Origin: Pseudomonadota bacterium
Lineage (GTDB): Bacteria; Bdellovibrionota_G; JALEGL01; DATDPG01
Assembly (NCBI GenBank): GCA_043809315.1
Contig: JAZDDX010000035.1
Coordinates: 31,921 to 95,920, forward strand
Length of the DNA: 64,000 bases
Direction: 5' to 3'
Below are positions 732-47,280 of the stretch, in pieces. Numbering within the stretch: position 1 is the first letter of the stretch; every line of letters begins with the position of its first letter. A model generated the notes under the pieces. That model ran no database searches, was not told the origin of the DNA, and saw only the letters and a program-made list of their open reading frames with translations. Both the position numbers and the translations under genes were made by a program.

Positions 732-742
732 GCGGGGCTCCG

Positions 743-3996: not shown

Positions 3997-4008
3997 GGCG
4001 CAACGAAG

Positions 4009-25333: not shown

Positions 25334-26500
25334 TTATCGGTAGGCGGGGAGGCCGGTTAAGTGCTCGGCGATGATCAGGGAGTGGATGTCGTGCGTCCCC
25401 TCGTACGTGTAGACTGACTCGAGGTTCACCATGTGGCGCATCGAACAGTAGTCGTCGAGGATTCCGTTCGCGCCCAGGATGTCGCGCGACTTGCGCGCGC
25501 ATTCAAGCGCAATCGCGACGTTGTTCCGTTTTGCCATGGAGACCTGGTGCGGCTTCACCTTCCCCTCGTCCTTCAACCGCCCGACGCGAAGAATCAGCAG
25601 CTGTCCTTTCGTGATTTCGGTTGCCATCCAGGTCAGCTTGTCCTGGACCAACTGGAAGCCGGCGATCGGTTTTCCGAACTGCGGACGCTTCTTCGCGTAA
25701 TCCAACGCCTCACCGAAACAGGCCTGCGCAGCCCCGATGGTACCCCAAGCGATCCCGTACCGCGCCTGATTTAGACAACTGAGAGCCGATCCGAGGTTCT
25801 TCGTTTTCGGTAAGAGATTCTCCTCGGGGATCTCGCACCGGTCGAAACAAAGTTCCCCGGTATCCGACGCCCGGAGGGACATCTTTCCCTTGATCTCGTT
25901 CGCCGTGAAGCCGGGGGTTCCTTTTTCCACGAGAAACCCGCGGACGCCGTCCGGCGTCTTCGCCCAGATCACCGCCAGATCGGCGATCGTCGCATTCGTG
26001 ATCCAGTACTTCGTGCCATGAAGGACCCACTTCGATCCTTTCTTCTCCGCCCGAGTGATCATCCCCCCCGGATCCGACCCGAAGTCCGGCTCCGTCAACC
26101 CGAAGCATCCGATCACTTCCCCGCGCGCCATCTTCGGAAGCCACTTGTCCTTCTGCTGCTCGCTCCCGAAATGATGGATGGGATACATGCAGAGGGCACT
26201 CTGCACCGAAACGAACGACCGGAGCCCCGAATCGCCGTGCTCGAGCTCCTGTACCGCGAGCCCGTACGCCACTTCGTTCATCCCGGCGCACTCGTACCCT
26301 TTGATGTTCGCTCCGAAGAGACCGATTCCCGCCATCGGCTTGATCAGCTCCCGCGGGAAGGTTCCCGCACGGGCATGCTGATTGATGGCCGGGAGGACTT
26401 GATCCTTCACGAACTCCCGGACCGTGTCGCGCACCATCCGTTCTTCGTCGGACAGCAGCTCGTCGAAATTCAGGAAATCGAGGTCGTCAAACATCGTCAT
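25334..26500 (-). CDS. Acyl-CoA dehydrogenase (glutaryl-CoA dehydrogenase-like)
   Basis: About 388 aa from MTMFDDLD...; ACAD N-terminal, middle and C-terminal domains (GCFGLTEPDFGSDPGGM, YEGTHDIHSL). The upstream part of the 428-aa ORF is probably not translated. Confidence 0.85.
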   Translation of the reverse strand: MTMFDDLDFLNFDELLSDEERMVRDTVREFVKDQVLPAINQHARAGTFPRELIKPMAGIGLFGANIKGYECAGMNEVAYGLAVQELEHGDSGLRSFVSVQSALCMYPIHHFGSEQQKDKWLPKMARGEVIGCFGLTEPDFGSDPGGMITRAEKKGSKWVLHGTKYWITNATIADLAVIWAKTPDGVRGFLVEKGTPGFTANEIKGKMSLRASDTGELCFDRCEIPEENLLPKTKNLGSALSCLNQARYGIAWGTIGAAQACFGEALDYAKKRPQFGKPIAGFQLVQDKLTWMATEITKGQLLILRVGRLKDEGKVKPHQVSMAKRNNVAIALECARKSRDILGANGILDDYCSMRHMVNLESVYTYEGTHDIHSLIIAEHLTGLPAYR

Positions 26501-26613
26501 GGGCGGGCCCCCTTTGCGCGGTCTTTTACCAGAAGCCGGGACGATGGCAATGTCCTCCCCCCGACAATTTCGGCGCACTCCTGCGCCGTTTCGGTTAAAA
26601 TTCGAAGAGCACC

Positions 26614-28275
26614 GTGACAACGGAAATCAGACCGCAAACGCCCCGGAAAGAGCCCCCGACTTGCCATTTCGTCTGTTCCGGATGTCGTACCGTCCTCTCG
26701 ATTCCGGAGAGCGCCTTTGCGACCCGGGGGTATTCGATCAACTGTGAAATCTGTAACCGACCGATCTCAATCCGTCCCATTTCCGCCGACGGTTCGATGG
26801 AAGTCCTGGAACTGTCTGGATGCCAGTACGCGGGAAAAGGGTTTCCCAAAGAGCTCCCCCCCCCGTTCGACACCTTCCCGTTCGAGGCAACCACCGAGCT
26901 GAAGGATGCCGTCGGAAGCTGGATTGCGGACACCGTGAAACCGGGGGAAGGAGTGCCTCACGACCGGAATTCCGAGCCGGGAAAAAGTTCTTTCGTCGAA
27001 GAACTGATCACGAAGTGGGAAGTCTGGAGGAAGAACGGCGAGGTGTTCCAGTTCGAAACGTTCGCCCTCATCCGGAAATGGATCCAGGAGGGTAAGATCA
27101 CCGCCGGGGATGAGATCATCCCGACCGGGGGAACGCCTTATCCGGTCGACACGTACCCCGGGACCGCAGATCTGTTCGGAAACGTCGTCAGCTCCACGGA
27201 AGGGCGACAGATCTTCGCGGCGAGCGCGGTCTTAAGCCGCATGCGCCGTCAGCGCGTCCGGCAAGTTTTGGCGGGGCTCGTCGTTCTCGCGATCCTGGCG
27301 GCTGCCGCCAGTTTCCCGTACGCCCGGAAGCTCTGGCGCAAACAAAAGGGGGAGAGTTTCGTCTCCGGCCTCGTGGCGGGTTCCGTCTCGACCGACTCCA
27401 CCGACCCCTCGGCCCTCTATCTGAATGCGATCGAGTTCGTCCGGCAAGGAACGAGCAGCTCCCTGCCGCACGCCTCCATCCTTTTCCAGCGCCTTCTCGC
27501 CAAACGAAAAACGGATCCGGATCTGATCGCTCGGTTGGCTGAAACCTGGACGGAGATCGGGGCGTTGACCGCCGACAAAGACGAGTTCGCGCGGGCGGAG
27601 ATCCTGATCCAATACGCGGAGGTGCTCCGCGAAAATGACAAGGCAGTTCGAAGGGCTCGGGCTCGATGGTTCTGGCGGAACGGCTACGCCGATCGGGCGG
27701 CCGTCATAGCGGGAAGTTTTGATCCGAAAGATCTCGACGGACAGCTTCTCCTGGCCCGGATCGCCGCTTCGCACGGGGATTTCACGAAAGCCACGATCAC
27801 GCTATCGGACGTTTTGAAGCGGGAACCGAACAACATCTCGTTCCTCTTTGCCATGGTCGACGTTTTCGAAAGACAGTCGAAACTCAACGAGGCCGCGAGT
27901 TATCTGATTCGGGTCGAATCGCTGGCCCCGAATCCGGAACCGTTCACCGCGCAGTTGAAGACCCTTTACCGCAGGGCGGGGGACTCAGATTCCCTCGAAG
28001 GGCTCTATCGGAAATCGATCGCCGCCCGCTCCAAGACCGCCGAGGCCGACCAGCTCGAGCTGATCCGCCTCCTGTATACCCAAAGCCGTCTCGAGGAAAC
28101 CGTCAAGGAGGCCCTGAACTATTTCGCCGAATATCCGGAGGGTGCTTCTTCCGTCGAGGTCCGAAAGATTTATGGCGACGCCGTGCGCGGGACAAAAATC
28201 GAACCCGAGAAGCGCAAGTCCCCATCCCCGCCCGCTCGGCGCCCCCGGTCGATGCGTTACCGGCGCGGAACCTGA
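26614..28275 (+). CDS. Zinc-ribbon (MJ0042-like CxxC...CxxC) membrane protein with C-terminal TPR repeats
   Basis: N-terminal CHFVCSGC...CEIC finger, one predicted TM segment (VLAGLVVLAILAAAASF), then a TPR-like helical repeat region. GTG start. Confidence 0.55.
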   Translation: MTTEIRPQTPRKEPPTCHFVCSGCRTVLSIPESAFATRGYSINCEICNRPISIRPISADGSMEVLELSGCQYAGKGFPKELPPPFDTFPFEATTELKDAVGSWIADTVKPGEGVPHDRNSEPGKSSFVEELITKWEVWRKNGEVFQFETFALIRKWIQEGKITAGDEIIPTGGTPYPVDTYPGTADLFGNVVSSTEGRQIFAASAVLSRMRRQRVRQVLAGLVVLAILAAAASFPYARKLWRKQKGESFVSGLVAGSVSTDSTDPSALYLNAIEFVRQGTSSSLPHASILFQRLLAKRKTDPDLIARLAETWTEIGALTADKDEFARAEILIQYAEVLRENDKAVRRARARWFWRNGYADRAAVIAGSFDPKDLDGQLLLARIAASHGDFTKATITLSDVLKREPNNISFLFAMVDVFERQSKLNEAASYLIRVESLAPNPEPFTAQLKTLYRRAGDSDSLEGLYRKSIAARSKTAEADQLELIRLLYTQSRLEETVKEALNYFAEYPEGASSVEVRKIYGDAVRGTKIEPEKRKSPSPPARRPRSMRYRRGT

Positions 28276-28276
28276 C

Positions 28277-29617
28277 TCAGACCAGATCGAGAGAGGCGCT
28301 GGCCTCCCGGCAGCTTTCCAGGACTTCACCCCGCTCGGCGCTCCGCTCCGCCATTCGGGCTCGGAGAGCTTCGAGAACCGCGCGGTTGTTTCGTAACACC
28401 GCCGCCGCGTCTTTCCGCTTGAGACAGAACAGCTCGGAGTCCGTCACAGCAGAAACCTTTGCCGTACGGGGTTTCCCGGTCAGCATGGCGACTTCTCCGA
28501 AATAATCCCCCGGTCCGAGTTCCCCGATGACGACGTGGCTCTTTCCATGCTGCGAGGTAACAACGAACTTCCCCGATCGGATGAAGAACATCTTGTCCCC
28601 CTCGGTCTTCTCCTCCATGACCGTTTCTCCCGTCTTCACCCGGCGGGGGGTGACCAGGCAGGAGAGCTTTTCCCGCTCGGTCGCGGAGAGGACCCGGAAG
28701 ACGGTGGAACGCGAGAAGATCGTGTCCATCACACGTTTCCGAAGATACACGTCGAGAATCGTCCAGATCTGCGGATGGCGATCCGCGATCGCGAAGATGT
28801 CCCGCGCGCTGATTTCGAGAAGTTCCAACTCCGTAACGGCCCGGACCGACGCATTCCGCGAGGTGTGCATGATCAGACTGTACTCGCCGAAAAAGTCCCC
28901 TCCCGAAAGACGGGCCAAGACCAGCGGGGAACCGTCCGGTTGACGCACGCTCACTTCGACGGTTCCCTCGGAGATCAGGAACATCGAGTCCCCGGCATCC
29001 CCTTCCTCGCAAACGTACGCCTGGGGGGGCACGCGACGAACCGCGAATCGCTCCAGAACGGCGCTCAGTTCGTCCGGTTGCAGGTCGGAGAAGAGGGGGA
29101 TTTTTTTACTTCCGGTGACCGGCTCTCCCCGTTCGACCGGGGATGGTTCGATCAGATCGGTCGTAAGCTCGATGGGCTCGCGCGGAGGAACGCCGCTGAT
29201 GGTACGTGCGCCCCGCGCTTCCGCTTGCGCAGCCGGGGCTTTCTGCCGTGCGGAGCAGAGTTCGCTGAGCTTTTTTTTCGCCGCTTCGTCGTCCGGGTCG
29301 AGTTCGAGGATCATCTTGCTGATCGCGATCCCCTTCGCCCAGAACCTCTCATTGGAATAACTATCGGCGACCTTCTTGTAGAATTCGATGGCGTCGTCGA
29401 TCCGCCCCAACCGTTTGTGAAGATCCGCGATCCGCTGCCCGATCCGGGGGTCGAATGGACCGATCCGGTCCGCTTCCAGGTACAACTCCAGCGCTTTTTC
29501 CCACTTCAGTTCCTGGTAACAGGCGTCCGCCTTGTCGCGCACCTTCCGCGCTTTCGGAACGATCTGGCGAACCCCGGACATCGCTGCGAGTTTATGGGCG
29601 CCCGCCGCGTCTGGCAA
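28277..29617 (-). CDS. TPR-repeat protein with two cyclic-nucleotide-binding (cNMP/CAP-family) domains
   Basis: N-terminal TPR region. Two CAP-effector domains with the conserved FGE...A motif (DFFGEYSLIMHTSRNASVRAV and DYFGEVAMLTGKPRTAKVSAV). Begins 15 nt after the ftsZ stop, same strand. Confidence 0.7.
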   Translation of the reverse strand: MPDAAGAHKLAAMSGVRQIVPKARKVRDKADACYQELKWEKALELYLEADRIGPFDPRIGQRIADLHKRLGRIDDAIEFYKKVADSYSNERFWAKGIAISKMILELDPDDEAAKKKLSELCSARQKAPAAQAEARGARTISGVPPREPIELTTDLIEPSPVERGEPVTGSKKIPLFSDLQPDELSAVLERFAVRRVPPQAYVCEEGDAGDSMFLISEGTVEVSVRQPDGSPLVLARLSGGDFFGEYSLIMHTSRNASVRAVTELELLEISARDIFAIADRHPQIWTILDVYLRKRVMDTIFSRSTVFRVLSATEREKLSCLVTPRRVKTGETVMEEKTEGDKMFFIRSGKFVVTSQHGKSHVVIGELGPGDYFGEVAMLTGKPRTAKVSAVTDSELFCLKRKDAAAVLRNNRAVLEALRARMAERSAERGEVLESCREASASLDLV

Positions 29618-29631
29618 GTTGCGTCGGCAGG

Positions 29632-30846
29632 CTAGTCCACCTGCTTGCGCAGAAAGGTCGGGATGTCGTACTCGTCCTCCTCGAAGGCATCCAGGCCGAG
29701 TTCCTTCGACCGTTTCCGGAACTCGAGCGGATCGACGTCGCGCAGTTTCACGACCGGCATGCCGACGCTCTCGTCTTCCAGCCTCCCCACGTGTTGCACG
29801 GGCGCCCTCGGCTTCACGAGCTCCCGCGGGTAGGTGATCCTCGGTTCCTCTTTCGCCAGCTTCCCGAATCCGGTCGCGATCACCGTGATCCGGATCCCGT
29901 CCCCCATCCGCTCGTCGATCACGGCGCCGAAGATGATGTTCGCCTCCTCATGCGATGCCTCCTGGATCATCACCGCCGCGTCGTTTACCTCGTGCAGCGT
30001 CAGGTTCGAGCTGCCGGTGATGTTGAGCAGGACGCCGGTCGCCCCGTTGATGTCGATGTCCTCGAGCAGCGGCGACGAAATCGCCCGCTGGGCCGATTCC
30101 AACGCCCTCCGCTCACCGGAGGCCTGCCCCGTCCCCATCATCGCCATCCCCTGCCCATTCATGATCGTCCGGACATCGGCGAAATCGAGGTTGATGAGCC
30201 CCGGAATCGTGATCAGATCGCTGATCCCGCGCACCGCCTGCAGGAGAACCTCGTTCGCCTTCTTGAAAGCGTCGAGGATCGAGGTCGTCTCCCCCGCGAT
30301 GTTGATGAGGCGCTGGTTCGGAATCACGATCAGCGTGTCGACCGCGTTCTTGAGCTCGTGAATCCCCTGCTCGGCTTGAAGTTTTCGCTTCTTCCCCTCG
30401 AAGACGAACGGTTTGGTCACGACCCCGACGGTGAGCGCCCCAACCTCTTTCGCGATCTGCGCGATGATCGGCGCCCCGCCCGTCCCGGTGCCTCCCCCCA
30501 TTCCGGCCGTGATGAAGACCATGTCGGCTCCCGACAGGACTTCCGCGATCCGGTCCCGGTCCTCGAGCGCCGCTTCCCGCCCGATTTCGGGGTTCGCCCC
30601 GGCCCCCAACCCCTTCGTGACGGATGCGCCCAGCTGCACCAGGTTCTCGGCGCTCGATGCGTTCAAGGCCTGCAGGTCGGTGTTGGCGGCAAAGAACTCC
30701 ACGCCGGTCAATCCTTCCGAAATCATCGTGTTGACCGCGTTCCCTCCCCCGCCTCCGATCCCGATCACCTTGATCTTCGCTACGTTCTTCACATCTTCAT
30801 CAAATTCGAACATTTCCGTTTCTCCTCTCGTTCGTAAGGTTTTCAA
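29632..30846 (-). CDS. ftsZ: Cell division GTPase FtsZ
   Basis: Tubulin signature GGGTGTG, T7 loop NxDxxD, and the C-terminal conserved peptide (DIPTFLRKQ). The start may be the internal MFEFDED at 30813. Confidence 0.95.
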
Positions 30847-30858
30847 AATCGCCCGGCT

Positions 30859-32088
30859 CTAAAAGAACTCCCCGAACCACTCGCGCATCCGGCCTCGCAC
30901 CTTGGCGTAGACATTCGTTTCCCGAACCCGGAACTTCGACGTCGCCGCCGTCTGCCGGCTCCCGTACTGCGTCAAGCCCACCGCTGTGGCGTAGATCGGA
31001 CTCGACACCACGTCGACCAGTCCGCCGAACCCGTGGGGAACCCCTCGCCGAGCCGGCATCTCGAACACCTTCTCCGCCAACTCGGGGGCCCCCGGTAAGA
31101 TCGAACACCCCCCCGTCAGGACGACCCCCGATGCCAGAAGCTCCGCAAGACCCAGTTTGTCCAGCTCCCGCTTCGTCAACGCGAAGATCTCCTCCATCCG
31201 CGGCTCGATGATCTCCGCCAGCAGCTGCCGCGAAATCGTGCGCGGCTGGCGCCCCCCGACGCTCGGCACCTCGATCGTCTCCTCATGCGAGACCATTCCG
31301 GTCATCGCACAGCCGTATTCGTGCTTGATCTTCTCGGCCTCGACCGTCGGCGTCCGGATCCCCACCGCAATGTCGTTCGTCAGGTGGTTCCCTCCGAGCG
31401 CCAGAACCGCCGTGTGTTTGATCGCGCCGTGCACGTAGACGACGAGGTCGGTCGTCCCCCCCCCCATGTCGATCAACGCCACCCCAAGATCCTTCTCGTC
31501 CTGAGTCAGGACCGATTCGGCGGACGCGAGCTGCTCGAGAACGATGTCGGCGACGTTCAGCCCGCAACGGTTGCAGCACTTCACGATGTTCTGCGCGGAG
31601 GTGACCGCCCCGGTCACGATGTGCACTTTCGCCTCGAGGCGAACCCCCGACATCCCGATCGGGTCGCGGACACCGTCCTGTTCATCGACGACGTACTCCT
31701 GCGGAAGGACGTGCAGTACCTCCCGGTCCATCGGGACCGCGACCGCTTTCGCGGCGTCGATCACGCGCTCAACGTCCGCCCCCCGCACCTCCGAATCCTT
31801 TACCGCCACCACGCCGTGGCTGTTGAATCCGCGAATGTGTCCGCCGGCGATCCCGGCGAAGACCGAGTGGATCTCGCACCCGGCCATCAGTTCCGCCTCC
31901 GCGACCGCTTTTTCGATCGACGCGACGGTGGAGTCGATGTTGATCACGACCCCTTTCCGTAAACCCCGTGACGGGTGCGTTCCGATCCCGACGATGTCCA
32001 GCCCGTGCGACGTCATCTCCCCGACCATCGCGCAGATCTTCGTGGTCCCGATGTCGAGCCCCACGATCAAGTTATCCCTCTTTCCCAT
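30859..32088 (-). CDS. ftsA: Cell division protein FtsA
   Basis: Actin-fold ATPase ([18 protein letters not shown]..., DMGGGTTDL). Start taken at MGKRDN. Confidence 0.9.
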
Positions 32089-32101
32089 ATATCCTCCCTT
32101 G

Positions 32102-32842
32102 TTACTTTCTGATTTTGACGATCGCGCGATCCCGAAAACCGAGATCAAGTTCCCGCACGACCCCCTCTTTCCCTTTCAAATCTTGAAGCACCCGCACCAA
32201 TCGCTTCATCTTCTCGCCGAAGAGATCCCAGCCGATCACGGCCGGCGTTTTCGTGTTCATCCGATAGAGGATCCAGCCGAACGCGGGGTCGAAGTGAATT
32301 TCCGAAATGTCTTTTTCCGCGAAGCCTGCCTGGACCAAAGCATCGCGAATCTCCAAGCCTTCCGTCAGGCGACTGGAAAGGGAGGGAGCGTCTTTCTCCT
32401 TCCACGGACCCGTCAGGACGACGAGTTTCGCCGCCTCCGGGGAACTCGCGTCGGCCGCTTCCAGGACGTTCCCGTCGCGATCGACGAAGTGGAGGCGATC
32501 GAGGTTCACGAGCGCCGCGACCTTCCGTTCCGCCACGCGCACGACAATCTGTCCGGTCACGTCCCGTGCGACCGTCACCCGCTCCAGCCTCGGGTGAAGA
32601 GCCATTTTCTTGAGCGCCTCGTCCCGCCATCGGCCGAAGAGCGGTCCCCCCTCCTGGATGCCGCTCAGTGCCTGAACTTCGATCTTCGAAAGCGCCTTCG
32701 CCCCCTGCACGTGAAGGTTCCGGACCGTGAACGGGATCTTTCTCTCCAGCTCACGGATGAAACGCGGGAGAAAAACGGTTGCCGCGATCGCGAAACCGAT
32801 CGCCATCGGAGCGAACCATCTGGGAGAACGCTTTCTTCTCAT
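32102..32842 (-). CDS. ftsQ: Cell division protein FtsQ/DivIB
   Basis: TM segment followed by POTRA and beta domains. Start MRRKRSPRWF (ATG 32842 verified) overlaps the ddl stop as ATGA. Confidence 0.75.
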   Translation of the reverse strand: MRRKRSPRWFAPMAIGFAIAATVFLPRFIRELERKIPFTVRNLHVQGAKALSKIEVQALSGIQEGGPLFGRWRDEALKKMALHPRLERVTVARDVTGQIVVRVAERKVAALVNLDRLHFVDRDGNVLEAADASSPEAAKLVVLTGPWKEKDAPSLSSRLTEGLEIRDALVQAGFAEKDISEIHFDPAFGWILYRMNTKTPAVIGWDLFGEKMKRLVRVLQDLKGKEGVVRELDLGFRDRAIVKIRK

Positions 32843-33792
32843 CCCTTCGCTTCCCCCATGTCGATCTTGAGCCGCGCATCCTGGAGGATCGTTTCGACCA
32901 GCGATTCGAATGTTCCCCCCTCGGCGCGCCACGCTTTCGGAACCAGTGAAGTTTCCGTCATCCCGGGAACCGTGTTCACCTCGAGAACCCAGGGGATCCC
33001 CTCTTCATACAGAAGGTCGACCCTCCCCCACGATTCGCACTGAACCGCCGCGAATGCCTTCTTCGCCTCCGTCTGCGCGATCCGGACGACGTCGTCGGTC
33101 ACGCGTGCGGGACAGAAGTACTCGGTCATCCCTTTCGTGTATTTCGACTCGTAGTCGTACAACCCCTTCTTGGGAACGATCTCGATCGGCGGAAGAGGTT
33201 TGTTTCCAACGAAGCTGACGGTCAGCTCCGTTCCCCCGATGAACTTTTCCCAGAGAACCGTCTCGTCGAATCCGAGAGCCGTCCGGTGCGCCTTTTCGAT
33301 CTCCGATTCCTTTCGGACGACCGTCAGGCCGAGCGTCGATCCCTCGTTCGCCGGCTTCGCGACCGCCGGAAGGCCGACTTTTTTCACGATCGCATCACGC
33401 AAGTCGGCCGGTTTCCACTCCTTCCCCGCCGCCACCCACGGAGGAGTCCGCACGCCGGCTTCCTCGAACAACCGCTTCGTCATGACCTTGTCCATCGCAA
33501 CCGCGCTCCCCAGAACGCCGGAACCGGTGTACGGGATCTTCAAGAACTCCAGGAGCCCCTGGATCGTCCCGTCCTCCCCGTACCGTCCGTGCAGCGCAAT
33601 TAGCGCTACCTCGATCCGCTCCTTCCGGAGCTGCTCGGCGATATCATGACCGGCGTCGATTTCCGTGACGTGGGAATATCCGAGGATTCGGAGCGCCTGC
33701 GCCATCGCTCTCCCGCTTCGAAATGAAATTTCCCGCTCCTTCGAAAGTCCTCCGAGAAGCACGGCGATCCGCTTGTCTTTCGAAACCTTCAT
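32839..33792 (-). CDS. ddl: D-alanine--D-alanine ligase
   Basis: 317 aa; ATP-grasp Ddl motifs (HGRYGEDGTIQGLLE, EVNTVPGMT). ATG 33792 verified. ATGA overlap with murB. Confidence 0.9.
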   Translation of the reverse strand: MKVSKDKRIAVLLGGLSKEREISFRSGRAMAQALRILGYSHVTEIDAGHDIAEQLRKERIEVALIALHGRYGEDGTIQGLLEFLKIPYTGSGVLGSAVAMDKVMTKRLFEEAGVRTPPWVAAGKEWKPADLRDAIVKKVGLPAVAKPANEGSTLGLTVVRKESEIEKAHRTALGFDETVLWEKFIGGTELTVSFVGNKPLPPIEIVPKKGLYDYESKYTKGMTEYFCPARVTDDVVRIAQTEAKKAFAAVQCESWGRVDLLYEEGIPWVLEVNTVPGMTETSLVPKAWRAEGGTFESLVETILQDARLKIDMGEAKG

Positions 33793-34721
33793 GATTCCAC
33801 CCCGATCCAATGGACTTCCGCCTCGAGATCGACGTTGAAACGCTTCCTCACTTCGTCGCGCGCCCGCGCCATCAGCGCCAGGACATCGGCGCTCTTCGCA
33901 TTCCCGAGATTCACGATGAAGTTCGCATGCTGTTTCGAGATTTCCGCCCCCCCGATCCGGAGACCTTTCAAGCCCGCTGCCTCGATCAACCTTCCGGCGT
34001 GATCCCCCGGCGGATTCTTGAAGACCGATCCGAAGTTCGGGAGATCGAGTGGTTGATTTTTCCGCTTCTCTTTGGCCGCCCCGATTTCGGTCTCGACTTC
34101 GTTCGGCGTTCCTCGTTGGAGCGTCAGGTGCGCCGCCGTGATCACCAGCGAATCCCCTTTCGGAAAATCTCGGTAGCGAAAGTCCGCGGGTCCGGTTGCG
34201 ATCGAAACCGATCCGCCATCTCGGTCGACCCCTTCGACCCGCTCCACGAGCTGGCCGTACCAACCGAGCGGGGTTCCCGCATTCATCCGGACCCCCCCTC
34301 CGATCGTGCCGGGGATTCCGAACGCCCAGCCAAAGCCGGTCAGATTTCGTTCCCGGGCCCATTGGAGGAGGGTGCTGTTCAAAACCCCCGCTCCCGCGCG
34401 CACCCGGACCCGTTTCTCTTCCTCTTTCACCATCTGGATTTTCGAAAACCCGGCACTCAAGTCGATCAAGACCCCGGGGAACCCACCGTCCAACACCAGG
34501 AGGTTCGATCCGCGCCCGATCACCGCCCAGTCTTTTCCCCGTTCGAGGTGCCGGCGAGCGAACCATCGGATCAAAGCGGCCAGTTCCTCGGCTCCCGCCG
34601 GTGTCGCGATGGCAGCGACGTGAGCCGAACAACGGAACGTCGTCCAGTCCCGGAGCGAGGGGTCCTCCAGAATTCGACCCGGGCAGAGAGCCGCAAGCTC
34701 TTTCATAAGCTCCGGCTTCAT
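33789..34721 (-). CDS. murB: UDP-N-acetylenolpyruvoylglucosamine reductase
   Basis: 310 aa; FAD-binding domain (GRGSNLLV) and MurB C-terminal domain. ATG 34721 verified. Confidence 0.9.
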   Translation of the reverse strand: MKPELMKELAALCPGRILEDPSLRDWTTFRCSAHVAAIATPAGAEELAALIRWFARRHLERGKDWAVIGRGSNLLVLDGGFPGVLIDLSAGFSKIQMVKEEEKRVRVRAGAGVLNSTLLQWARERNLTGFGWAFGIPGTIGGGVRMNAGTPLGWYGQLVERVEGVDRDGGSVSIATGPADFRYRDFPKGDSLVITAAHLTLQRGTPNEVETEIGAAKEKRKNQPLDLPNFGSVFKNPPGDHAGRLIEAAGLKGLRIGGAEISKQHANFIVNLGNAKSADVLALMARARDEVRKRFNVDLEAEVHWIGVES

Positions 34722-36097
34722 TTGCGCGTCCTCCGAAGGAGCCCCAGGATCAACGGTCCCGCTTTCGTGACATCCCCCGCTCCCATGGTCGCGATCAGAT
34801 CTCCGGCAGCCGCCGTCTGGCAGAGGGCGGTGATCCCCTCCTCCAACGACGCGACGTATTTCGCCCGAACCTTCCCCCGTTGCGCGATTTCTTTCGTCAA
34901 CCGCTCCGCATCGACACCGACGATCGGCTTTTCGCTCGCCGCGTAGATCGGCATCATGAACAGTTCGTCCGCGCCGTCGAACGCGACCAGAAACCGATCC
35001 CAAAGATCCCCCACGCGCGTGAATCGGTGTGGCTGAAACAGGATCCTCACCTTCCCGGTTCCCGCTATCGCGCGCAACGCTTCGATCGTCGCCACGATCT
35101 CCGTCGGATGGTGGGCGTAGTCGTCCACCACGCGGATTTCGTGCACGCTTCCTTTGACCTCCAGGCGCCGTTCGATCCCGGCGAATCCGGCCAGCCCCTC
35201 GACGATCTTTCCCGACTCGGCCCCGATGTGACGACAGACCGCGAACGAGGCGAGAGCGTTCCAGATATTGTGTCGCCCCGGAATCGGAAGCTCGACCGGA
35301 CCGAACTTCTCCTCCCCCCGGACAATCGAAAACCTCGAGCCATTGGCCGTAAGCTCGATCCCGACGGCCCGCAGATCGGTTTCCTTGTCGATCCCGTACG
35401 TCACGACCGGCTTTTCGATCATCGGAAGAATCGCGGAGGCCCCAGGGTCGTCGGCACAGATCGCGACGATCCCGTCGAACGAAACGCGGTTCGCGAAGTC
35501 GACAAACGCCTGTTCCAGCTTCGCGTACGATCCGTAATGGTCGAGGTGTTCCCGGTCGACGTTCGTGATCACCGCGACGGCGGGAAGGAGGCGCAAGAAC
35601 GACCCGTCGCTTTCGTCGCTTTCCGCCACGAACCACTCGTCGGTCCCGATCTTGGCATTCCCGGAAATCTGTTTTAGGCGTCCGCCGATCACCGCGGTCG
35701 GGTCGAAGCCCGCCTTCAAGAGGATCGTCATGATCATCGCGCTCGTGGTGGTCTTGCCGTGCGCCCCAGCCACGACGATCGAATGTTTCATCCGCATCAG
35801 CTCCGCGAGCATTTCCGCCCGCGGAATCACCGGAATCTTTCGCCGTTTCGCTTCCAGGATCTCCGGATTGTTCGGCGGCACCGCCGAGGAGTAGACGACC
35901 GCCCGGGCGTCCGGGACGTTCTCGGCGCGATGGCTCCCGAAGATCGTCGCCCCCAACGACTTGAGCTTCTCCGTTTCGGCGTTCGTGCGGAGATCGCTTC
36001 CGGAGACGCGATATCCCGACCGGATCAGGATCTCCGCGATCGCGCTCATCCCGATCCCTCCGACCCCGACCAGATGAATCAGCTTCGAAGGGCTCAT
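34718..36097 (-). CDS. murC: UDP-N-acetylmuramate--L-alanine ligase
   Basis: 459 aa; Mur ligase P-loop AGAHGKTTTSAM, DYAHHPTE. Confidence 0.9.
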   Translation of the reverse strand: MSPSKLIHLVGVGGIGMSAIAEILIRSGYRVSGSDLRTNAETEKLKSLGATIFGSHRAENVPDARAVVYSSAVPPNNPEILEAKRRKIPVIPRAEMLAELMRMKHSIVVAGAHGKTTTSAMIMTILLKAGFDPTAVIGGRLKQISGNAKIGTDEWFVAESDESDGSFLRLLPAVAVITNVDREHLDHYGSYAKLEQAFVDFANRVSFDGIVAICADDPGASAILPMIEKPVVTYGIDKETDLRAVGIELTANGSRFSIVRGEEKFGPVELPIPGRHNIWNALASFAVCRHIGAESGKIVEGLAGFAGIERRLEVKGSVHEIRVVDDYAHHPTEIVATIEALRAIAGTGKVRILFQPHRFTRVGDLWDRFLVAFDGADELFMMPIYAASEKPIVGVDAERLTKEIAQRGKVRAKYVASLEEGITALCQTAAAGDLIATMGAGDVTKAGPLILGLLRRTRK

Positions 36098-37173
36098 GCG
36101 TTCCTCGCTTTCCCGGTGGCCAGGTCGGCTGCGATCACGCGGGCGGCATCCGCTCTCCGCAACGAGAGCGCCGCTCCGCTCATCCGCTTGAGCCGCCCCG
36201 GATCCCGCAACAGTTCCCGCAGTTCCATGGAAAGGGTTTTCCCGTCCAGCGCCCCGTCCTCGATCACCAGGGCGGCACCGGCCCGTTCGATGACCCGGGC
36301 GTTTGCGCGTTGATGATCGTCCGCGGCATGCGGGAACGGGACGAGAATCGCGGGACGCCCGCAGGCGGCGATCTCGAGAACGCTCGAACCGGACCGGGCG
36401 ATCACGACATCGCTCGCTCGATAGGCTCCGGCCATGTCGCGGATGAACGGCTGGACGTCGGAGGGAATCCCGTGCTCCCGATACGCCCGCAAAACCCGGT
36501 CGTAGTCGGCCTGCCCCGTCTGATGAATGAAGAAGACCTGTTCTCGCTCCGGCGCGAAATCGGGGAGCATGTCGATCACTGCCTGGTTGATCCGCCGTGC
36601 TCCCTGAGAACCGCCGAAAATCAGGATCCCCCGCTTCTTCCCTTCGAAGGTCGGGGGCGGAACGGCGAGGATCTCGGCGCGGATCGGGTTTCCGCTGACC
36701 ACGCACTTCGTTTCCGGCAGACGTGCTCGAGCTTCGTCGAACGCCACAAAGACCCGGTCGACGAATCGGGCGAGAACCCGGTTGGCAAAGCCAGGGATCG
36801 CGTTCGGTTCGAGGATCGCGGTCCGGTGGTTCGACAAGGCGGCGAGAAGCAGGATCGGCCCCGAGGCGTATCCGCCGATTCCGAAGACCGCCGTCGGGGA
36901 GAAGCGCCGCAGAATCCTCCACGACTGGAGGAAGGCACCCGGAAGAAGCGCCGCATTCGCGATCTTCTCCGCGATCCCTTTCCCCTTGAGCCCCCTCAGC
37001 CGAATCAGCTCGAGACCGTACCCGGTCCCCGGGACGAGATCGTTTTCGAACCCCTTTGCCGTCCCGACGAAGAGGATCGGCGCTTTCTCCTCGAGAAGTC
37101 GGGCCGCGTTGGCGATCGTCAGCGCCGGAATGACGTGCCCACCGGTCCCTCCGGCCGCGAGAAGGAGTTTCAT
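36094..37173 (-). CDS. murG: UDP-GlcNAc:undecaprenyl-PP-MurNAc-pentapeptide GlcNAc transferase
   Basis: 359 aa; GGTGGHVIPAL N-terminal G-loop and GT28 C-terminal domain. Confidence 0.9.
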   Translation of the reverse strand: MKLLLAAGGTGGHVIPALTIANAARLLEEKAPILFVGTAKGFENDLVPGTGYGLELIRLRGLKGKGIAEKIANAALLPGAFLQSWRILRRFSPTAVFGIGGYASGPILLLAALSNHRTAILEPNAIPGFANRVLARFVDRVFVAFDEARARLPETKCVVSGNPIRAEILAVPPPTFEGKKRGILIFGGSQGARRINQAVIDMLPDFAPEREQVFFIHQTGQADYDRVLRAYREHGIPSDVQPFIRDMAGAYRASDVVIARSGSSVLEIAACGRPAILVPFPHAADDHQRANARVIERAGAALVIEDGALDGKTLSMELRELLRDPGRLKRMSGAALSLRRADAARVIAADLATGKARNA

Positions 37174-38315
37174 ACCGGTCTCCTTCGCGCCATCGGTTTC
37201 GACCCTGCGATCGTGGACGAGAGGGAGAGGAGAATCCCGATCGCGATCAACATCGCGATCAGGGAGGAACCGCCGTAACTCACCAGGGGGAGCGTCATCC
37301 CTTTCGTCGGAACGAGCGCCGTTACGACCGCCATGTTGAGAACCGCCTGCGTTCCGATCAGCGTCGTCAAACCCAGCGCCGCCTGGGAGCCGAACGTGTC
37401 CCGGATCTTGAGCGCCAGACGGAACCCCTGGTAGACGATGCAGACGAAGCAGGCGATCACCAGCATGCAACCGAGGATCCCGAGCTCTTCGGCGATCACG
37501 GAGTAGATGAAATCGGTGTGCGCTTCCGGGAGATAGAGAAGCTTCTGCGTCCCGTCCCCCAACCCCTGTCCCTGCAGCCCGCCCCGCTGGAAGGCGACGA
37601 ACGACTGCAGGATCTGGAATCCGCTCCCTTGGGGGTCCCCCCAGGGGTTCAAGAACGCGAGCAGGCGCCTGCGACGGTACCCGGCTCCCTGAATCAGGAA
37701 AAACCCGGAGACCGAAACGAGCGCGGCCAGCCCACCGATGTGCCAGAGACGGGCTCGGGCGACGAAGAGCATCACGAGAACGCAGAGTGCGAGCGCCACG
37801 GCCGTTCCGAAATCGGGCTGCCGCAGAATCAGGAGGAGAACCCCGCCGACGGTCAGCAGGAGAGGCAGAAGCCCCCGGAAGAAGTCTGTAATCCCCTCCC
37901 CTTTCTTCGCGAGGTAGGCTGCCACGTAGAGAAGGAGAAACGGCTTCGCGAACTCCGACGGTTGGAACGTGAAGCCGCGGAAGCTCAGCCATCGAGTCGC
38001 ATGTTTCGCCTCGACCCCGTGCGACGTCAGCGCGGTTACAAGCAGGAGAAGTCCGCAGATCACAAGCCCCGGAAGCGCGGCCGCCTTGAGCCAACGCAGG
38101 TTCAGAAGGAAAACGATCGTCATGGCGACCAGACCGATCGCCCCCGAAAAGAGATGCCGCTTGAGATAGTGCGCGCTGTCCTTGAATTGCTCGGCCGCCG
38201 TGAGCGAGCTCGCGCTGTAGACCATGACCGTGCCGATGACCAAGAGAACCATCACCGCCGTCAGGACGACGGGGTTGACGTGCGCGAATTTGGCCCATCG
38301 GGTGGTCCGGTTCAT
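37170..38315 (-). CDS. ftsW: Peptidoglycan glycosyltransferase FtsW (SEDS family)
   Basis: 381 aa; 10-TM SEDS topology, conserved FQPSEFAK and LPEAHTDFI motifs. Confidence 0.9.
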   Translation of the reverse strand: MNRTTRWAKFAHVNPVVLTAVMVLLVIGTVMVYSASSLTAAEQFKDSAHYLKRHLFSGAIGLVAMTIVFLLNLRWLKAAALPGLVICGLLLLVTALTSHGVEAKHATRWLSFRGFTFQPSEFAKPFLLLYVAAYLAKKGEGITDFFRGLLPLLLTVGGVLLLILRQPDFGTAVALALCVLVMLFVARARLWHIGGLAALVSVSGFFLIQGAGYRRRRLLAFLNPWGDPQGSGFQILQSFVAFQRGGLQGQGLGDGTQKLLYLPEAHTDFIYSVIAEELGILGCMLVIACFVCIVYQGFRLALKIRDTFGSQAALGLTTLIGTQAVLNMAVVTALVPTKGMTLPLVSYGGSSLIAMLIAIGILLSLSSTIAGSKPMARRRPV

Positions 38316-39679
38316 TTCTTTTTTCCACCCGCCGCCTTCTTTTGTTCCAACACCAACTCCGCGAAGTGCCGGCCCCTCTCCTCGTAGTCGCGGTACTGGT
38401 CGAAACTGGCGTTGGCCGGGGAGAGAAGCACTACGTCCCCCTCCTCGGCGCTCTTGAGCGCCGCCCCGAACGCCGTTTCGAGATCGGTCACCTTCCGGTG
38501 GCGGATCAGGCGCAGCGTCTGGGCCATCGAATCGGCCGCTTCCCCGTACAGCAGCATCTCCTTCACTCGGCCCTGGGCTGCCGCGAGGATCGGCTCGTAG
38601 CCGGCCCCCTTCGACCGGCCGCCGGCCAGGAGAATCACCGGAGCGTCGAACGATTGGATCGCCCGGACCGTGGCTTCCGGGGTGGTACTTTTCGAGTCGT
38701 TCACGAAACGGATGCCTCCCACCGTCGCGACCGGTTCGAGGCGGTGTGCCAATGCCGCAAAGGTCTTCAGCCCTTTCTCGATCTTGTCGGCCGGGCAACC
38801 GACGGAAACGGCTGCCGCCACCGCTGCCACCGCATTCTCGACGTTGTGTTCGCCCAAGAGCTTGAACCCAGAGAGAGAGATCGCCCGCCCGTCCCGCAGA
38901 TGAATCGATTTCCGATCCGCGTGGATATCGGCCTTGGCGTTCGGTTTGCCGGAGAAGAACCAGATCGACGCTTTGATCCGTTTCGCGACCTCCGCGCAGG
39001 CCGAGTCGTCCATGTTGAAAATCGCGCGATCCTCTTTGATCATCCGGGCGAACAGGCGTTCTTTCGCCGCGATGTATCCCGACAGATCCCCGTGCCGGTC
39101 GAGGTGGTTGGGCGAGACGTTGAGAAGGAGCGCCACGCGCGGGCGGAACGTCTCGACCGTCTCCAGCTGGAAACTCGAGATCTCCGCCACGACGAAGTCG
39201 TACGAACCCCCGACCGCGTTGATGAGCGGGTTTCCAAGGTTTCCGCCGGTGAAGACCTGTTTCCGCCAGCCGGAAAGGATGTGTCCTAGGAGCGCCGTGG
39301 TCGTCGACTTCCCGTTTGACCCGGTGATCGCGACGACCGGAGCCGAGATCCGGCGGCTCGCGAATTCCACTTCCCCCCAGACCGGGATCCCGGCCCGTCT
39401 TGCGTCCCGGAGGAACGGCTGCGTGCTCGGCACGCCGGGGCTCACGATGAGGAGGCTCGCCGACAGAAGGGACCTTGGACGTTCGGTCCCCGCCTCCAGC
39501 TCGAACTTCAAACCTTTGAGACTCTCGAGATTCGGAATCAGCTCCGATGCCGGCTTTACATCGTACGCCACGACATCGGCCCCCTGCGAGCAAAGATACC
39601 GGATCACGCCGACCCCGGTGCGAGGACCGAGACCGACGACTCCGATTCTCTTCCCCTTCAAATTTTCTTCGCCCAACAT
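38312..39679 (-). CDS. murD: UDP-N-acetylmuramoylalanine--D-glutamate ligase
   Basis: 455 aa; GVVGLG Rossmann fold, GSNGKSTTT P-loop. Confidence 0.9.
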   Translation of the reverse strand: MLGEENLKGKRIGVVGLGPRTGVGVIRYLCSQGADVVAYDVKPASELIPNLESLKGLKFELEAGTERPRSLLSASLLIVSPGVPSTQPFLRDARRAGIPVWGEVEFASRRISAPVVAITGSNGKSTTTALLGHILSGWRKQVFTGGNLGNPLINAVGGSYDFVVAEISSFQLETVETFRPRVALLLNVSPNHLDRHGDLSGYIAAKERLFARMIKEDRAIFNMDDSACAEVAKRIKASIWFFSGKPNAKADIHADRKSIHLRDGRAISLSGFKLLGEHNVENAVAAVAAAVSVGCPADKIEKGLKTFAALAHRLEPVATVGGIRFVNDSKSTTPEATVRAIQSFDAPVILLAGGRSKGAGYEPILAAAQGRVKEMLLYGEAADSMAQTLRLIRHRKVTDLETAFGAALKSAEEGDVVLLSPANASFDQYRDYEERGRHFAELVLEQKKAAGGKKK

Positions 39680-39683
39680 CCCC

Positions 39684-40757
39684 CTACCTCAGTTTCAATG
39701 TCGACAGCGCCACGAGCGCTAGAATGATCGCGATGATCCAGAAGCGAACGATCACCTTCGGCTCCGCCCACCCTTTCAGCTCGAAATGGTGGTGGATCGG
39801 TGCCATCTTGAAGACCCGTTTTCCCGTCGTCCGAAACGTCAGGACCTGGATGATGACGCTCACTGCCTCGATCACGAAGATCCCGCCGACCAAAAGGAGA
39901 AGGAGTTCTTGTTTCGTCACGACTGCGACCGTTCCGAGTGCTGCGCCCAACGCCAGCGATCCGACATCCCCCATGAAGACCTGTGCCGGGTAGGTATTGA
40001 ACCAGAGGAACCCCAACCCCGCGCCGACCAGCGCCCCGCAGAAGATCGCCAGTTCGCCGGCAAACCGAACGGGAATGACCTGCAGATACCGGGCGAACTC
40101 GAAGTTCCCGGCCACATACGCGAAGAAAAGGAAGGTGAACGCCGCGATCAGCGTCGGGCCGATCGCCAACCCGTCCAAGCCGTCGGTCAGGTTCACGGCG
40201 TTCGAGGAGCCGACGATCACCAGGATCGTCATCGGAACGAAGAACCACCAGCCGAGATCGAACGAGAGATCCTTCGCAAACGGAAGCTGCAGGTGGGTGT
40301 CGAACCCGGTTGCGACCAACGCCAACCCGACGACCCCGGCGACCAACAGCTGCATCTGGAATTTCTTCCGGATCGTCAGCCCTTTTTTCTTCTTCAATTT
40401 CAGGATGTCGTCGAGATACCCGATCCCCGCGAACCCGAGCGTGCAGAACGCCGTAATCCAGGTGATCGACACGTCGAGCCGTGCCCAAAGGAGAAACGCG
40501 GAGAGGAGGGAGAGAACGATCAGAAGACCCCCCATCGTCGGCGTCCCCGACTTCTGTTGATGGCGCTCCGGTACGTCCTCGCGGATGTTGTTCGAGCCGT
40601 GCTGGCGCGCTTTGAGGAATCGGATCACGAGCGGCCCCAAAAGGAAGCTGATGAGGAGTGCGGTCAGCATCGCCATGAAGACGCGGAAGCTGATGTACCG
40701 GAAAACCCGGAAGACCCCGAAGGTCGCGTGCAACGGATAGAGCAGGTGATAGATCAT
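39684..40757 (-). CDS. mraY: Phospho-N-acetylmuramoyl-pentapeptide transferase
   Basis: 357 aa; MraY motifs ([28 protein letters not shown]). Confidence 0.9.
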
Positions 40758-42160
40758 TTCCCTTCTTCCCTTTTCAGAATGGCCGCCAGGCGTTCGGTGA
40801 TCGTTTCGAGCTTCATCGCCCGCGACCCTTTGACCAGGACCGTGTCGTTCGGTCGGAGCTCCCGGGCGATCGCTTCGGCCAGCTCCTCATGCGTCGTCCC
40901 CACGGTGATGGAGACGTTCGACATCCCCCCCTGCACCGCCCCCTGGCGGACGTCCCCCGCGAACTGACCCATGACGAAAAGACGTGCATATTTGAAACCG
41001 GCGATCTTGATCCCGATGTCGCGATGGGCGCGCGTCGAAAACTCGCCAAGTTCCCGCATATCGCCGATCACGGCGATCCGCCGGTCGGTCGTCAGGTTCC
41101 GGACCGTCTCGAGCGCGACCAGCATCGATGCCGGGTTGGCGTTGTAGCAATCGTTGACGATCCGAATTCCTTTCGGGAAGGGGATCACCTCGAGCCGCAT
41201 CTCGACCGGCTCGACCCGGTCGATTCCCGCCTGGAGCTTCTCCGCCGGCACTCCGAGTGCATATGCGGCCCCGCAGGCGCAAAGCAGGTTCGAAACGTTG
41301 TGGATTCCGACAAATGGAACACGAAGATCGACCGACGATGAGCCGTACGCGAGATCGAGGACGAATCCGTTCCCTCTCAGATCTTCCCGGATCTTGGCGC
41401 GGAGATCGGCCCCCCCCCCCATCGAAACCGTGACCTTCTTCCCGGGGAATTGCTCCGCCAGCTTGCGGATGTTCCGGTCCTCCAGGTTCACGACCGCGAC
41501 GCCGTCCTTTTTCAACCCCTCGAACAGCTCCCTCTTCGCTTTCGCAACCCCCTCGAGCGAACCGAACTTCTCGAGATGCGCCGGCCCGACATTCGTCAGA
41601 ACCGCCACGTCGTGCTCCGCCGTGCGCCCCAGCTCCCGCAGTTCGCCATAGGCGTTCATCCCCATTTCGAGGACCGCGACCCGATGCTCGGGACGCAGCA
41701 TGAGGAGCGTGAGCGGAACCCCGAGCTGGTTGTTCCAGGTTCCCGGGGCCTTGAGCGTCGGTCGATCGGCCGCGAGCAATGCCGCCGTCATCTCCTTGGT
41801 GGTCGTTTTTCCGTTCGACCCGCTGATCGCGACGATCTTTCCACCCCAATTCCTGCGCCAGTCGCGTGCGAGATCCCGGAGTGCCTGCGAGGTGTTCCCC
41901 ACGAGGAACAACGGCCCGGAGCCGACGATCTCATGATCCACCACGGCCGCCGAGGCCCCCTTCTCGAACGCCTGCGACACGAATTCGTGACCGTCCCGGC
42001 TCGCGCGAAGTGCGAAGAAGAGATCCCCTTTTTGGATCGCACGCGTGTCGAGCGCGATCCCCGAGAAGTTCTTCGGCGCCGCTTCACTTTGTTCCGCCTT
42101 CATCGCCTGGGCGGCATCGGACGGACGGAGATCGATTTGCACGCGAAGCGGAAGCTTCAT
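40754..42160 (-). CDS. murF: UDP-N-acetylmuramoyl-tripeptide--D-alanyl-D-alanine ligase
   Basis: About 468 aa from MKLPLRV...; [14 protein letters not shown]-loop. ATGA overlap with murE. Confidence 0.9.
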
Positions 42161-45629: not shown

Positions 45630-45903
45630 GACCCCCCTTTGGAACGATGACGATCGATTCCATCCCGGTCGGACGTTCGAGCCCGAACGACTGGGACGCG
45701 ATCCGTTCCACCCGTTTCGGATTCCGAAGCGTGGCAAGTTCCAGAATCAGGGAACGCCGTTCCTGCTCCAAATCGGTTTTCTTTTGCTGTTTCTGCGCCA
45801 CTTCATAGCTCAGCTCGACCACCAAGAATCGTGAGCGAACGTAGAAGAGGGACACCACCAGCGTCACCAGGAGACAGAGCCCCACGAGCCCCCGTCCGGT
45901 CAT
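45616..45903 (-). CDS. ftsL: Cell division protein FtsL
   Basis: 95 aa from MTGRGLVG...: short N-terminus, one TM helix, coiled coil. Positioned between rsmH and ftsI. ATGA overlap with rsmH. Confidence 0.6.
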   Translation of the reverse strand: MTGRGLVGLCLLVTLVVSLFYVRSRFLVVELSYEVAQKQQKKTDLEQERRSLILELATLRNPKRVERIASQSFGLERPTGMESIVIVPKGGHDSP

Positions 45904-46859: not shown

Positions 46860-47280
46860 CACTGATCTCCTCGAAGTTCTTCTGCGACTGCGCGAAGACT
46901 TCCTGCCACCGCGCCTTGGACCAGATCTCGATCTTCTTGAGCATTCCGACGAGTACGATATGTCGGTCAAGATCGGCATACTGCCGGAGTGTGGGAGGGA
47001 TCAGCACGCGCCCCTGCCGATCGAGCGGGCATTCCACCGCGCCCGATATGAAATACCGGAGGAACGATTTCACCTCCCGCTTGAGCTGGGGGAACTCGGA
47101 TGCTTTCCGCTCCAAGAGCTCCCACTCCTCACGCGGGTAGGCCACGAGACAGCGATCGAAGTTGGTGACGACCAGCTCTTCGGACGAATACTTGTCGGTG
47201 AGCACCTCCCGGAAACGGGAGGGTACGCTCACGCGCCCTTTTCCATCCATCGTATGGTCGTACCAGCCGCGAAACATCAC
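46834..47280 (-). CDS. mraZ: Transcriptional regulator MraZ
   Basis: 148 aa; duplicated MraZ/SpoVT-AbrB domain with the two DxxxR motifs (LDRQGRVLIP). Confidence 0.9.
   Translation of the reverse strand: MMFRGWYDHTMDGKGRVSVPSRFREVLTDKYSSEELVVTNFDRCLVAYPREEWELLERKASEFPQLKREVKSFLRYFISGAVECPLDRQGRVLIPPTLRQYADLDRHIVLVGMLKKIEIWSKARWQEVFAQSQKNFEEISDVLAELGL

Follow-up and report, generated by a model that had tools for sequence, protein, structure and literature searches.

A tetratricopeptide-repeat protein with two cyclic-nucleotide-binding domains encoded beside ftsZ and, in its wider family, in cell-envelope gene contexts

Bacterial responses to cyclic AMP (cAMP) are attributed, with few exceptions, to transcription factors of the CRP type. 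The few non-transcriptional cAMP effectors that have been described (CbpA, CbpB, acetyltransferases and universal stress proteins (USP)) are poorly understood. CbpB of Myxococcus xanthus reportedly has two cAMP-binding domains, binds the Ser/Thr kinase SpkA and affects temperature and osmotic tolerance, and we know of no tetratricopeptide-repeat (TPR) module or linkage to dcw (division and cell wall) or lol genes reported for it. CbpA of Pseudomonas aeruginosa (Endoh and Engel 2009) is reportedly a polar cAMP-binding protein whose localisation is cAMP-dependent; here, too, we know of no TPR and of no link to division or lol genes. In Escherichia coli, the c-di-GMP enzymes YfiN/DgcN reportedly act on FtsZ and ZipA. 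We analysed a gene that directly follows ftsZ in a stretch of 64,000 nucleotides (nt) from a bacterium of the GTDB lineage Bdellovibrionota_G (contig JAZDDX010000035.1, positions 31,921 to 95,920; the whole stretch is hereafter called the window). Its product carries an N-terminal TPR module and two cyclic-nucleotide-binding (CNB) domains, and on balance we favour reading it as a cytoplasmic cyclic-nucleotide receptor, most probably for cAMP, that acts by protein-protein binding and is tied to envelope biogenesis. A class linked to TPRs is absent from the CNB families catalogued in 2007 (PMC2246266), the database names of relatives are all generic, and full-text literature searches returned no paper on a cyclic-nucleotide-binding gene at ftsZ, within lolCDE or together with a TPR. 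What is new is an uncharacterised architecture, and uncharacterised gene contexts, for a well-known sensor domain.

The coordinates of all features are collected in Table 1. The CNB gene is a real gene: the identical protein is on public record as MFH1263717.1 (434 amino acids (aa), "cyclic nucleotide-binding domain-containing protein", from a metagenome-assembled genome (MAG) of a Pseudomonadota bacterium, on a 108.7-kb contig), and its upstream neighbour on the same strand is ftsZ by Pfam. With a GC content of 0.75 at third codon positions against 0.45 at second positions, its codon-position profile matches the neighbouring genes and is typical of local coding sequence. The open reading frame (ORF) as first listed on the minus strand spans 28277-29617, and the original prediction gave a 446-aa product separated from ftsZ by 14 nt. 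The short gap and the shared strand stand, and both numbers change, because the start is most likely the ATG at 29581: the length of the public record, the N-termini of 15 homologues, which line up with a Met at this ATG, and the promoter analysis below agree on it. The in-frame TTG at 29617, whose three bases open a conserved hexamer resembling a -35 box, was rejected as a start on these same grounds. Starting at ATG 29581, the spacer to the ftsZ stop is therefore 50 nt (29582-29631).

Both parts of the architecture that had been proposed for this protein were borne out. Pfam finds two cNMP_binding domains (PF00027; whole-protein E-value 1.7e-44, cut-off 27.5 bits), the best stretch for domain B being 325-411 in the 446-aa numbering. 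The phosphate-binding cassette of domain A is FGEYSLIMHTSRNASV (28844-28891) and that of domain B is FGEVAMLTGKPRTAKV (28454-28501). Both keep F-G-E...R-x-A with canonical spacing, the signature of CAP-type domains, and none of the 16 close homologues, which share 43-58% identity over their full length, differs at G, E, R or A; the R and A of cassette B are conserved in 13 of 13 members of the ftsZ-linked clade. For the TPR module, the N-terminal 160 aa scanned alone pass the gathering thresholds of TPR_14 (27.1 versus 23.5 bits) and TPR_19 (26.6 versus 25 bits). The AlphaFold (AF2) model of the protein was built with 39 homologues and has a mean predicted local distance difference test score (pLDDT) of 85.5 and a predicted template modelling score (pTM) of 0.71. 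Its N-terminus contains helices at residues 9-23, 27-40, 45-57, 61-77, 81-94 and 99-114 with pLDDT 90-98, which fold as three TPR helix pairs (six helices) plus a capping helix, the number of repeats expected of a TPR protein being at least three. The module carries the family signature FWAK(A/G)IAxxK at 29315-29344, of which F80, W81, A82 and K83 are invariant. When the module alone was compared with 1.8 billion representative proteins, thousands of generic multi-TPR proteins and no informative fusions were retrieved; weak matches to SgmX/BatC reflect ordinary TPR similarity.

The HTH_Crp family was not found in the protein by Pfam, and its C-terminus is one long helix. Neither Pfam nor NCBIfam identifies a helix-turn-helix (HTH), kinase, GGDEF, channel or other output or catalytic domain in it. 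This leaves protein binding as the only possible output, by way of the TPR module, the linker or the C-terminal helix; the modelled helix may act as a lid or as a dimerisation helix.

The closest matches are the tandem CNB-A/B domains of the regulatory subunits of cAMP-dependent protein kinase (PKA-R; RI/RII) and of cGMP-dependent protein kinase (PKG), with E-values of 1e-35 to 1e-42 in a PDB profile search and about 1e-20 in Foldseek. The likeness extends to the overall design, namely tandem CNB domains with canonical cassettes, an N-terminal docking module, a disordered linker and no catalytic domain. However, the identity is 20-28%, the orientation of the CNB domains differs (root-mean-square deviation 10-19 Å), and the N-terminus is a TPR module; the RIIa four-helix dimerisation/docking domain of PKA-R was not found by Pfam. 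The linkers of the family also lack a conserved RRxS/A pseudosubstrate. Their consensus E-R-A-A-I-S-I-S-G-x-E-P has no paired Arg at P-3/P-2, and the RGARTISG of the window protein is not conserved in the family, so that the linker motif was rejected as a PKA-type pseudosubstrate for want of a conserved basic pair. CRP/FNR proteins share the CNB fold and the cassette, and the CRP model is the best NCBIfam match (93 bits versus a cut-off of 266), but CRP has a single CNB domain and a C-terminal HTH, whereas the window protein has two CNB domains, a TPR module and no HTH. CbpB and CbpA, both cited in PMC11139211, can be likened to it by description: the former as a bacterial stand-alone two-CNB protein without enzymatic output from a "deltaproteobacterial" lineage, the latter as a cAMP effector outside the CRP family that lacks DNA-binding and catalytic domains, and as a precedent for a location set by cAMP. 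YfiN/DgcN offers a functional analogy only, being an unrelated protein that uses another messenger; its link to division is experimentally shown, and that of the window protein is positional.

We examined about 100 full-length homologues at about 30% identity together with their flanks, whose ORFs were clustered without bias and then annotated. None of these homologues lies near ftsZ. The family is uncharacterised and is encoded almost only in cell-envelope contexts. In the Lol/Bam context, 61 loci have LolCE immediately before the gene and 48 have LolD immediately after it, and BamA occurs in 39, a Skp-like protein in 33 and LpxD in 15. These genes are arranged as lysS, lolCE, TPR-2xCNB gene, lolD, bamA, skp, lpxD. 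The start and stop codons of the TPR-2xCNB gene overlap its neighbours (median gap -4 nt to either side), and it is therefore a translationally coupled insert within the lol operon. These lol-linked loci (L015, L017, L054 and L081-L160 in our numbering; e.g. L085 5246-13889 and L088 4440-13096) belong to a branch from Thermodesulfobacteriota-type MAGs with at least 762 protein clusters at E-values of 1e-30 or below, almost all with a length of exactly 393 aa. Their copies are at least 60% identical across hundreds of members, and their database names are all generic. A second context is a cyclase cassette with the order CHASE2 class III cyclase, TPR-2xCNB, GAF-GAF-HD, CRP-like, phosphodiesterase-II (PDE-II)-like metallo-beta-lactamase. 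It was found in 12 loci from at least three sub-branches (L006 5550-15386, L107, L113, L116, L083, L110, L151, L094, L095, L090, L007 and L030), followed in five by a Mur-ligase-like gene and in one (L006) by an AMIN-domain protein. In two further loci (L009 7857-10585 and L012 4291-6966) a Mur ligase follows the family member at 3-16 nt, and these two ligases are 73% identical to each other. In a neighbour-joining tree the ftsZ-linked members form one clade and the lol-linked members are spread over most other branches, which suggests, as far as so crude a tree can, that the gene was relocated in a Bdellovibrionota-like lineage.

The cyclase cassette also bears on the ligand. All eight linked cyclases that were inspected carry DK[YF]xGD and [DN]YT[VI]xGD.VNL[AG]SR, i.e. 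Lys and Thr at the two substrate-specifying positions, which we take to be the substrate pair of class IIIb adenylate cyclases. Since these Lys/Thr cyclases share the cassette with PDE-II-like and CRP-like genes, cAMP is most likely the ligand of the TPR-2xCNB family as judged from gene content; for the window protein, cAMP would be an extrapolation from these distant family members.

Synteny was counted over 13 genomes or contigs with usable flanks; the source MAGs are from uncultured organisms and are labelled by their submitters as Bdellovibrionota, Oligoflexia, "Pseudomonadota" or unclassified, and the pattern-based locus searches can miss divergent members. The CNB gene lies within 4.4 kb of ftsZ in 12 of the 13, and in eight it is the very next gene on the same strand, 2-570 nt away (window 50, L161 64, L166 22, L164 8, L004 2, L002 about 180, L003 553 and L167 427 nt). 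The gene thus lies immediately downstream of ftsZ at the end of the dcw cluster, and the synteny check proposed with the original prediction came out in favour of conservation of this position in relatives. Three of the 13 have one to four unrelated genes between ftsZ and the CNB gene: a 564-aa TPR membrane protein in L001, an HNH gene and a 202-aa ORF in L165, and a toxin-antitoxin pair, a gene for a family 2 glycosyltransferase with TPR (GT2-TPR) and an epimerase gene in L162. As a side observation, the toxin-antitoxin of L162/L163 (3758-4395) is of the nucleotidyltransferase/HepT type and comes directly after ftsZ, before the GT2-TPR gene, the epimerase, which is UDP-GlcNAc 2-epimerase-like, and the CNB gene. 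In an Oligoflexia MAG whose protein is 28% identical (L005), the CNB gene converges on ftsZ from 2.2 kb away; it overlaps by 19 nt a gene for a 689-aa protein with TPR and a Slt-type lytic transglycosylase domain, and the pair converges on ftsZ-ftsA (350-5047). In the P0010 contig (JGI 3300071358) the CNB gene opens a block of CNB, GT2, zinc-ribbon/TPR (ZnTPR), alanine dehydrogenase (AlaDH) and acyl-CoA dehydrogenase (ACAD) genes that follows ftsK with a 2-nt gap. A gene for DUF4292, a putatively LolA/LolB-like domain, lies 5 kb upstream on that contig.

Promoters and terminators were called as consensus- and motif-level predictions. A putative sigma-70-like promoter lies in the 50-nt spacer of the window, the only one found in a scan of 3.2 kb where 0.1 was expected. 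Its -10 hexamer ends 7 nt before ATG 29581 and there is no Shine-Dalgarno sequence, so the predicted mRNA may be leaderless or have a short leader. Comparing the equivalent position in the window and 10 related loci, the same promoter type was found in eight of 11 (window, L161, L162, L165, L167, L001, L002 and L003), where 0.055 loci would be expected by chance from background frequencies. The variants consist of TTGCCA, TTTACA, TGGACA or TTGAAA, a spacing of N17 and TA[ACG]ACT, ending 7-16 nt before the ATG, and they are present whichever gene is upstream (ftsZ, the epimerase, the TPR membrane protein or a small unknown ORF). The three loci without the element are those in which the gene starts 2-22 nt behind ftsZ (L004, L164 and L166), L164 being also the only member with a GTG start. 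Such short gaps, together with the lack of a recognisable promoter, would imply true co-transcription with ftsZ in these three. On these motif-level calls, members of the family are either tightly coupled to ftsZ or have a dedicated promoter. No terminator-like site was found in the 50-nt spacer of the window, so that read-through from ftsZ is possible, and the window gene is probably expressed both from its own promoter and by read-through. The original prediction named an independent promoter or terminator between ftsZ and the gene, with no co-expression, as a refuting result; a promoter is predicted there and a terminator is not. In L002, a complete Bdellovibrionota chromosome (OY764265.1), a hairpin of -27 kcal/mol with a T-run follows the ftsZ stop directly (7814-7880), and the window has no such structure there. 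At its other end, the CNB gene and the convergent ZnTPR gene have stop codons separated by 1 nt (28273-28279). This leaves room for a terminator only within the coding region on the opposite strand, and the 3' ends of the two transcripts should overlap, which gives scope for antisense interference. One terminator-like hairpin of this kind is listed in Table 1, 56 nt past the CNB stop; the region has no more sites of this type than chance would give, which makes this one weak evidence.

The contexts that recur around this family (Lol, Bam and LpxD; Mur ligases; Slt; ftsZ or ftsK) lead us to lean, cautiously, towards an envelope-growth or division machine as the most likely class of target. A specific target in the divisome is plausible by gene position, and we regard it as a doubtful, tentative refinement. 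The mechanism that we propose follows the design shared with PKA-R (docking module, flexible linker and tandem CNB). Binding of cAMP to the two CNB domains would reorganise the CNB pair relative to the TPR module and the linker, and this rearrangement would expose or hide a surface of the TPR groove or linker for a partner in envelope growth or division. What the analysis shows is the domain make-up, the intact ligand motifs, the fold, the synteny, the promoter motif and the family contexts; that cAMP is the ligand, that the conformation switches, that the target belongs to the envelope or to division and that the gene is in fact transcribed are what we infer.

Several observations weigh against the receptor reading or serve its strongest rival, namely that the protein is a generic cAMP receptor which happens to open the next syntenic block, is transcribed alone and is unrelated to division. 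All functional evidence is positional, with no physical or functional tie to FtsZ or to envelope proteins. The gene has its own predicted promoter, which, being conserved in the eight loci regardless of the upstream gene, fits a gene transcribed by itself, as does the hairpin after ftsZ in L002. Other genes can be inserted between ftsZ and the CNB gene. In the P0010 contig the rearrangement break falls exactly between ftsZ and the CNB gene, which stays with its downstream block. Collinearity across the clade extends well beyond the pair and covers the whole region of ftsZ, CNB, ZnTPR, AlaDH, ACAD, hypothetical and FabH-like genes, so that adjacency to ftsZ may reflect slow rearrangement and not selection. 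Cyclase, phosphodiesterase, lol and bam genes were looked for in the window and up to 8 kb away in the ftsZ-linked loci, and none turned up. As for the ligand, 11 of 13 members have an unusual Asn after the cassette A Arg in place of Ser, Thr or Ala, because of which the ligand identity of the window protein is not secure; the residue at this position contacts the ligand mainly through its backbone.

Against mere coincidence, proximity to ftsZ is kept down to 28-37% protein identity, including the rearranged, convergent version (L004 and L005), and the sole displaced copy has landed 2 nt after ftsK, another division gene. Moreover, the three genomes with 2-22 nt gaps have no recognisable promoter, and every other branch of the family is also found in an envelope context. 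We consider positional coincidence unlikely, if far from negligible. The proposal that a cyclic nucleotide feeds into divisome regulation survives in a broader form, as an input into cell-envelope biogenesis; the divisome is one candidate, by position, and is set back by the predicted promoter, by the hairpin of L002, by the insertions, by the displacement to ftsK and by the distant members lying elsewhere.

A second rival takes the convergent neighbour as the partner. The zinc-ribbon/TPR membrane protein that had been predicted to abut the CNB gene was confirmed (MFH1263716.1). Its N-terminus carries a CxxC...CxxC zinc ribbon (26662-26763), and further along are a small beta-beta-alpha-beta-beta GYF-like domain with an invariant YPGTADLFGN (27013-27183), one hydrophobic helix (27268-27324), about eight TPRs and a basic tail. 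According to this rival, ZnTPR, often with a GT2, and the CNB protein together control a surface-glycan or envelope process and not the Z-ring, and a motif in the CNB linker docks onto the cytoplasmic zinc-ribbon or GYF-like domain. ZnTPR is exclusive to the clade, with 10 homologues only, and lies beside the CNB gene in 10 related loci, in five of them with a GT2 gene in between. The motif, [AS][IL]S[IL][SA]G.[EQ]P[RL].[ML][DE], occurs in one or two copies in the linkers of proteins P0002-P0016, is clade-specific and absent from the distant branches, and has a degenerate copy in the window, ARTISGVPPREP at 29174-29209. Motif and ZnTPR go together: 10 loci have both, and L004 and L005 have neither, which makes ZnTPR a second candidate partner. 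Glycan genes are frequent in the surroundings: the window has a GT2 and a sugar dehydratase, and L161/L162 have Epimerase_2, GT2-TPR, Wzz and Poly_export. However, the two genes are convergent and do not form one operon, and the co-occurrence amounts to a single phylogenetic event. The GYF-like call comes from topology and pattern only: for the N-terminal domains Foldseek gave no hint and Pfam, at E-values up to 5, nothing beyond a weak Zn_ribbon_4, and the AF2 model of the whole protein (pLDDT 77.6) retrieved only generic designed or eukaryotic TPR superhelices in Foldseek. We regard this partnership as improbable on present evidence.

That the protein is instead a PKA-R counterpart which keeps a Ser/Thr kinase of the eukaryotic type switched off in the absence of bound cAMP, along the lines proposed for CbpB and SpkA, we judge very improbable: the closest structures are the tandem CNB domains of PKA-R and PKG, relatives are named "cAMP-dependent protein kinase regulator" by JGI, Myxococcus CbpB is described as a PKA-R homologue interacting with SpkA (cited in PMC11139211), and a Pkinase gene is in the window, but the RIIa docking domain and a conserved RRxS/A pseudosubstrate are both missing, the kinase gene is 13 kb off, and no kinase gene recurs in the roughly 110 family neighbourhoods examined.

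With the receptor reading preferred, the remaining surroundings can be described briefly. The dcw cluster is complete from mraW to ftsZ (46979 to 29632), ftsZ being its last canonical gene, and a Shine-Dalgarno sequence GAGGAG precedes the ftsZ ATG at 30813. Downstream of the CNB gene the block continues with ZnTPR, AlaDH, ACAD, a hypothetical of about 300 aa and a FabH-like gene; the hypothetical always follows ACAD in this block (window, L164, L165 and P0010 contig). The kinase gene of the window does not recur in the neighbourhoods of the relatives. Upstream of dcw, also on the minus strand, are genes for a receiver and PilZ protein (48061-49794), a 1090-aa hybrid histidine kinase with two HATPase_c stretches (55375-58647) and a 683-aa protein with an N-terminal PilZ domain (58667-60718); the far end of the cluster is thus bordered by signalling genes of the c-di-GMP type. 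Scanning the window against Rfam and for tRNAs gave no match.

Table 1. Features of the window discussed in the text. Coordinates are positions in the window; residues refer to the 434-aa protein.
Feature	Coordinates	Strand	Basis or remarks
TPR + tandem CNB protein gene	28277..29581	-	434 aa plus stop; ORF, Pfam, public record
N-terminal TPR module, residues 9-114	29240..29557	-	TPR_14/TPR_19 and AF2
Disordered linker, residues 118-159 (about 45 residues)	29105..29230	-	AF2 pLDDT <50
CNB domain A, residues ~165-292	28706..29089	-	Pfam and AF2 beta-barrel
CNB domain B, residues ~293-399	28385..28705	-	Pfam and AF2 beta-barrel
Long C-terminal helix, residues 400-433 (34 residues)	28283..28384	-	AF2
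Putative sigma-70-like promoter TTGCCA-N17-TAAACT	29589..29617	-	Consensus match in 50-nt spacer
ftsZ, 393 aa from ATG 30813	29632..30813	-	Pfam: Tubulin 1.4e-49, FtsZ_C 1.9e-35
Rest of dcw: mraW, ftsI, murE, murF, mraY, murD, ftsW, murG, murC, murB, ddl, ftsQ, ftsA	30859..46979	-	Pfam, ORFs
Terminator-like hairpin + T-run	28191..28221	-	Minus-strand transcript; inside 3' end of convergent gene
Convergent ZnTPR membrane protein, 553 aa, locus tag V1495_09790	26614..28275	+	Pfam TPR/ARM_TT21, weak Zn_ribbon_4
Acyl-CoA dehydrogenase (ACAD) gene	25334..26620	-	Pfam; member of syntenic block
Conserved hypothetical	24432-25502	-	No Pfam match; window counterpart of ~300-aa genes after ACAD in L164, L165 and P0010 contig
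FabH-like gene	22598-23812		Adjoins ~300-aa hypothetical
Eukaryote-like Ser/Thr protein kinase (Pkinase) gene	14313-15422	-	13 kb from CNB gene

For the family as a whole, a further and still doubtful possibility is that it plugs cAMP into envelope machines, serving as a subunit or regulator of LolCDE in Thermodesulfobacteriota and having been redeployed to the divisome in the Bdellovibrionota-like lineage, where it would bind FtsZ, FtsA or ZnTPR depending on cAMP and thereby tune division after translation. If the positional signal is real, it would mean direct post-translational control of lipoprotein export and cell division by a second messenger, and the protein would be a simple prokaryotic analogue of the docking-linker-tandem-CNB design of PKA-R. 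Although the hosts are uncultured, this hypothesis is open to test with purified proteins.

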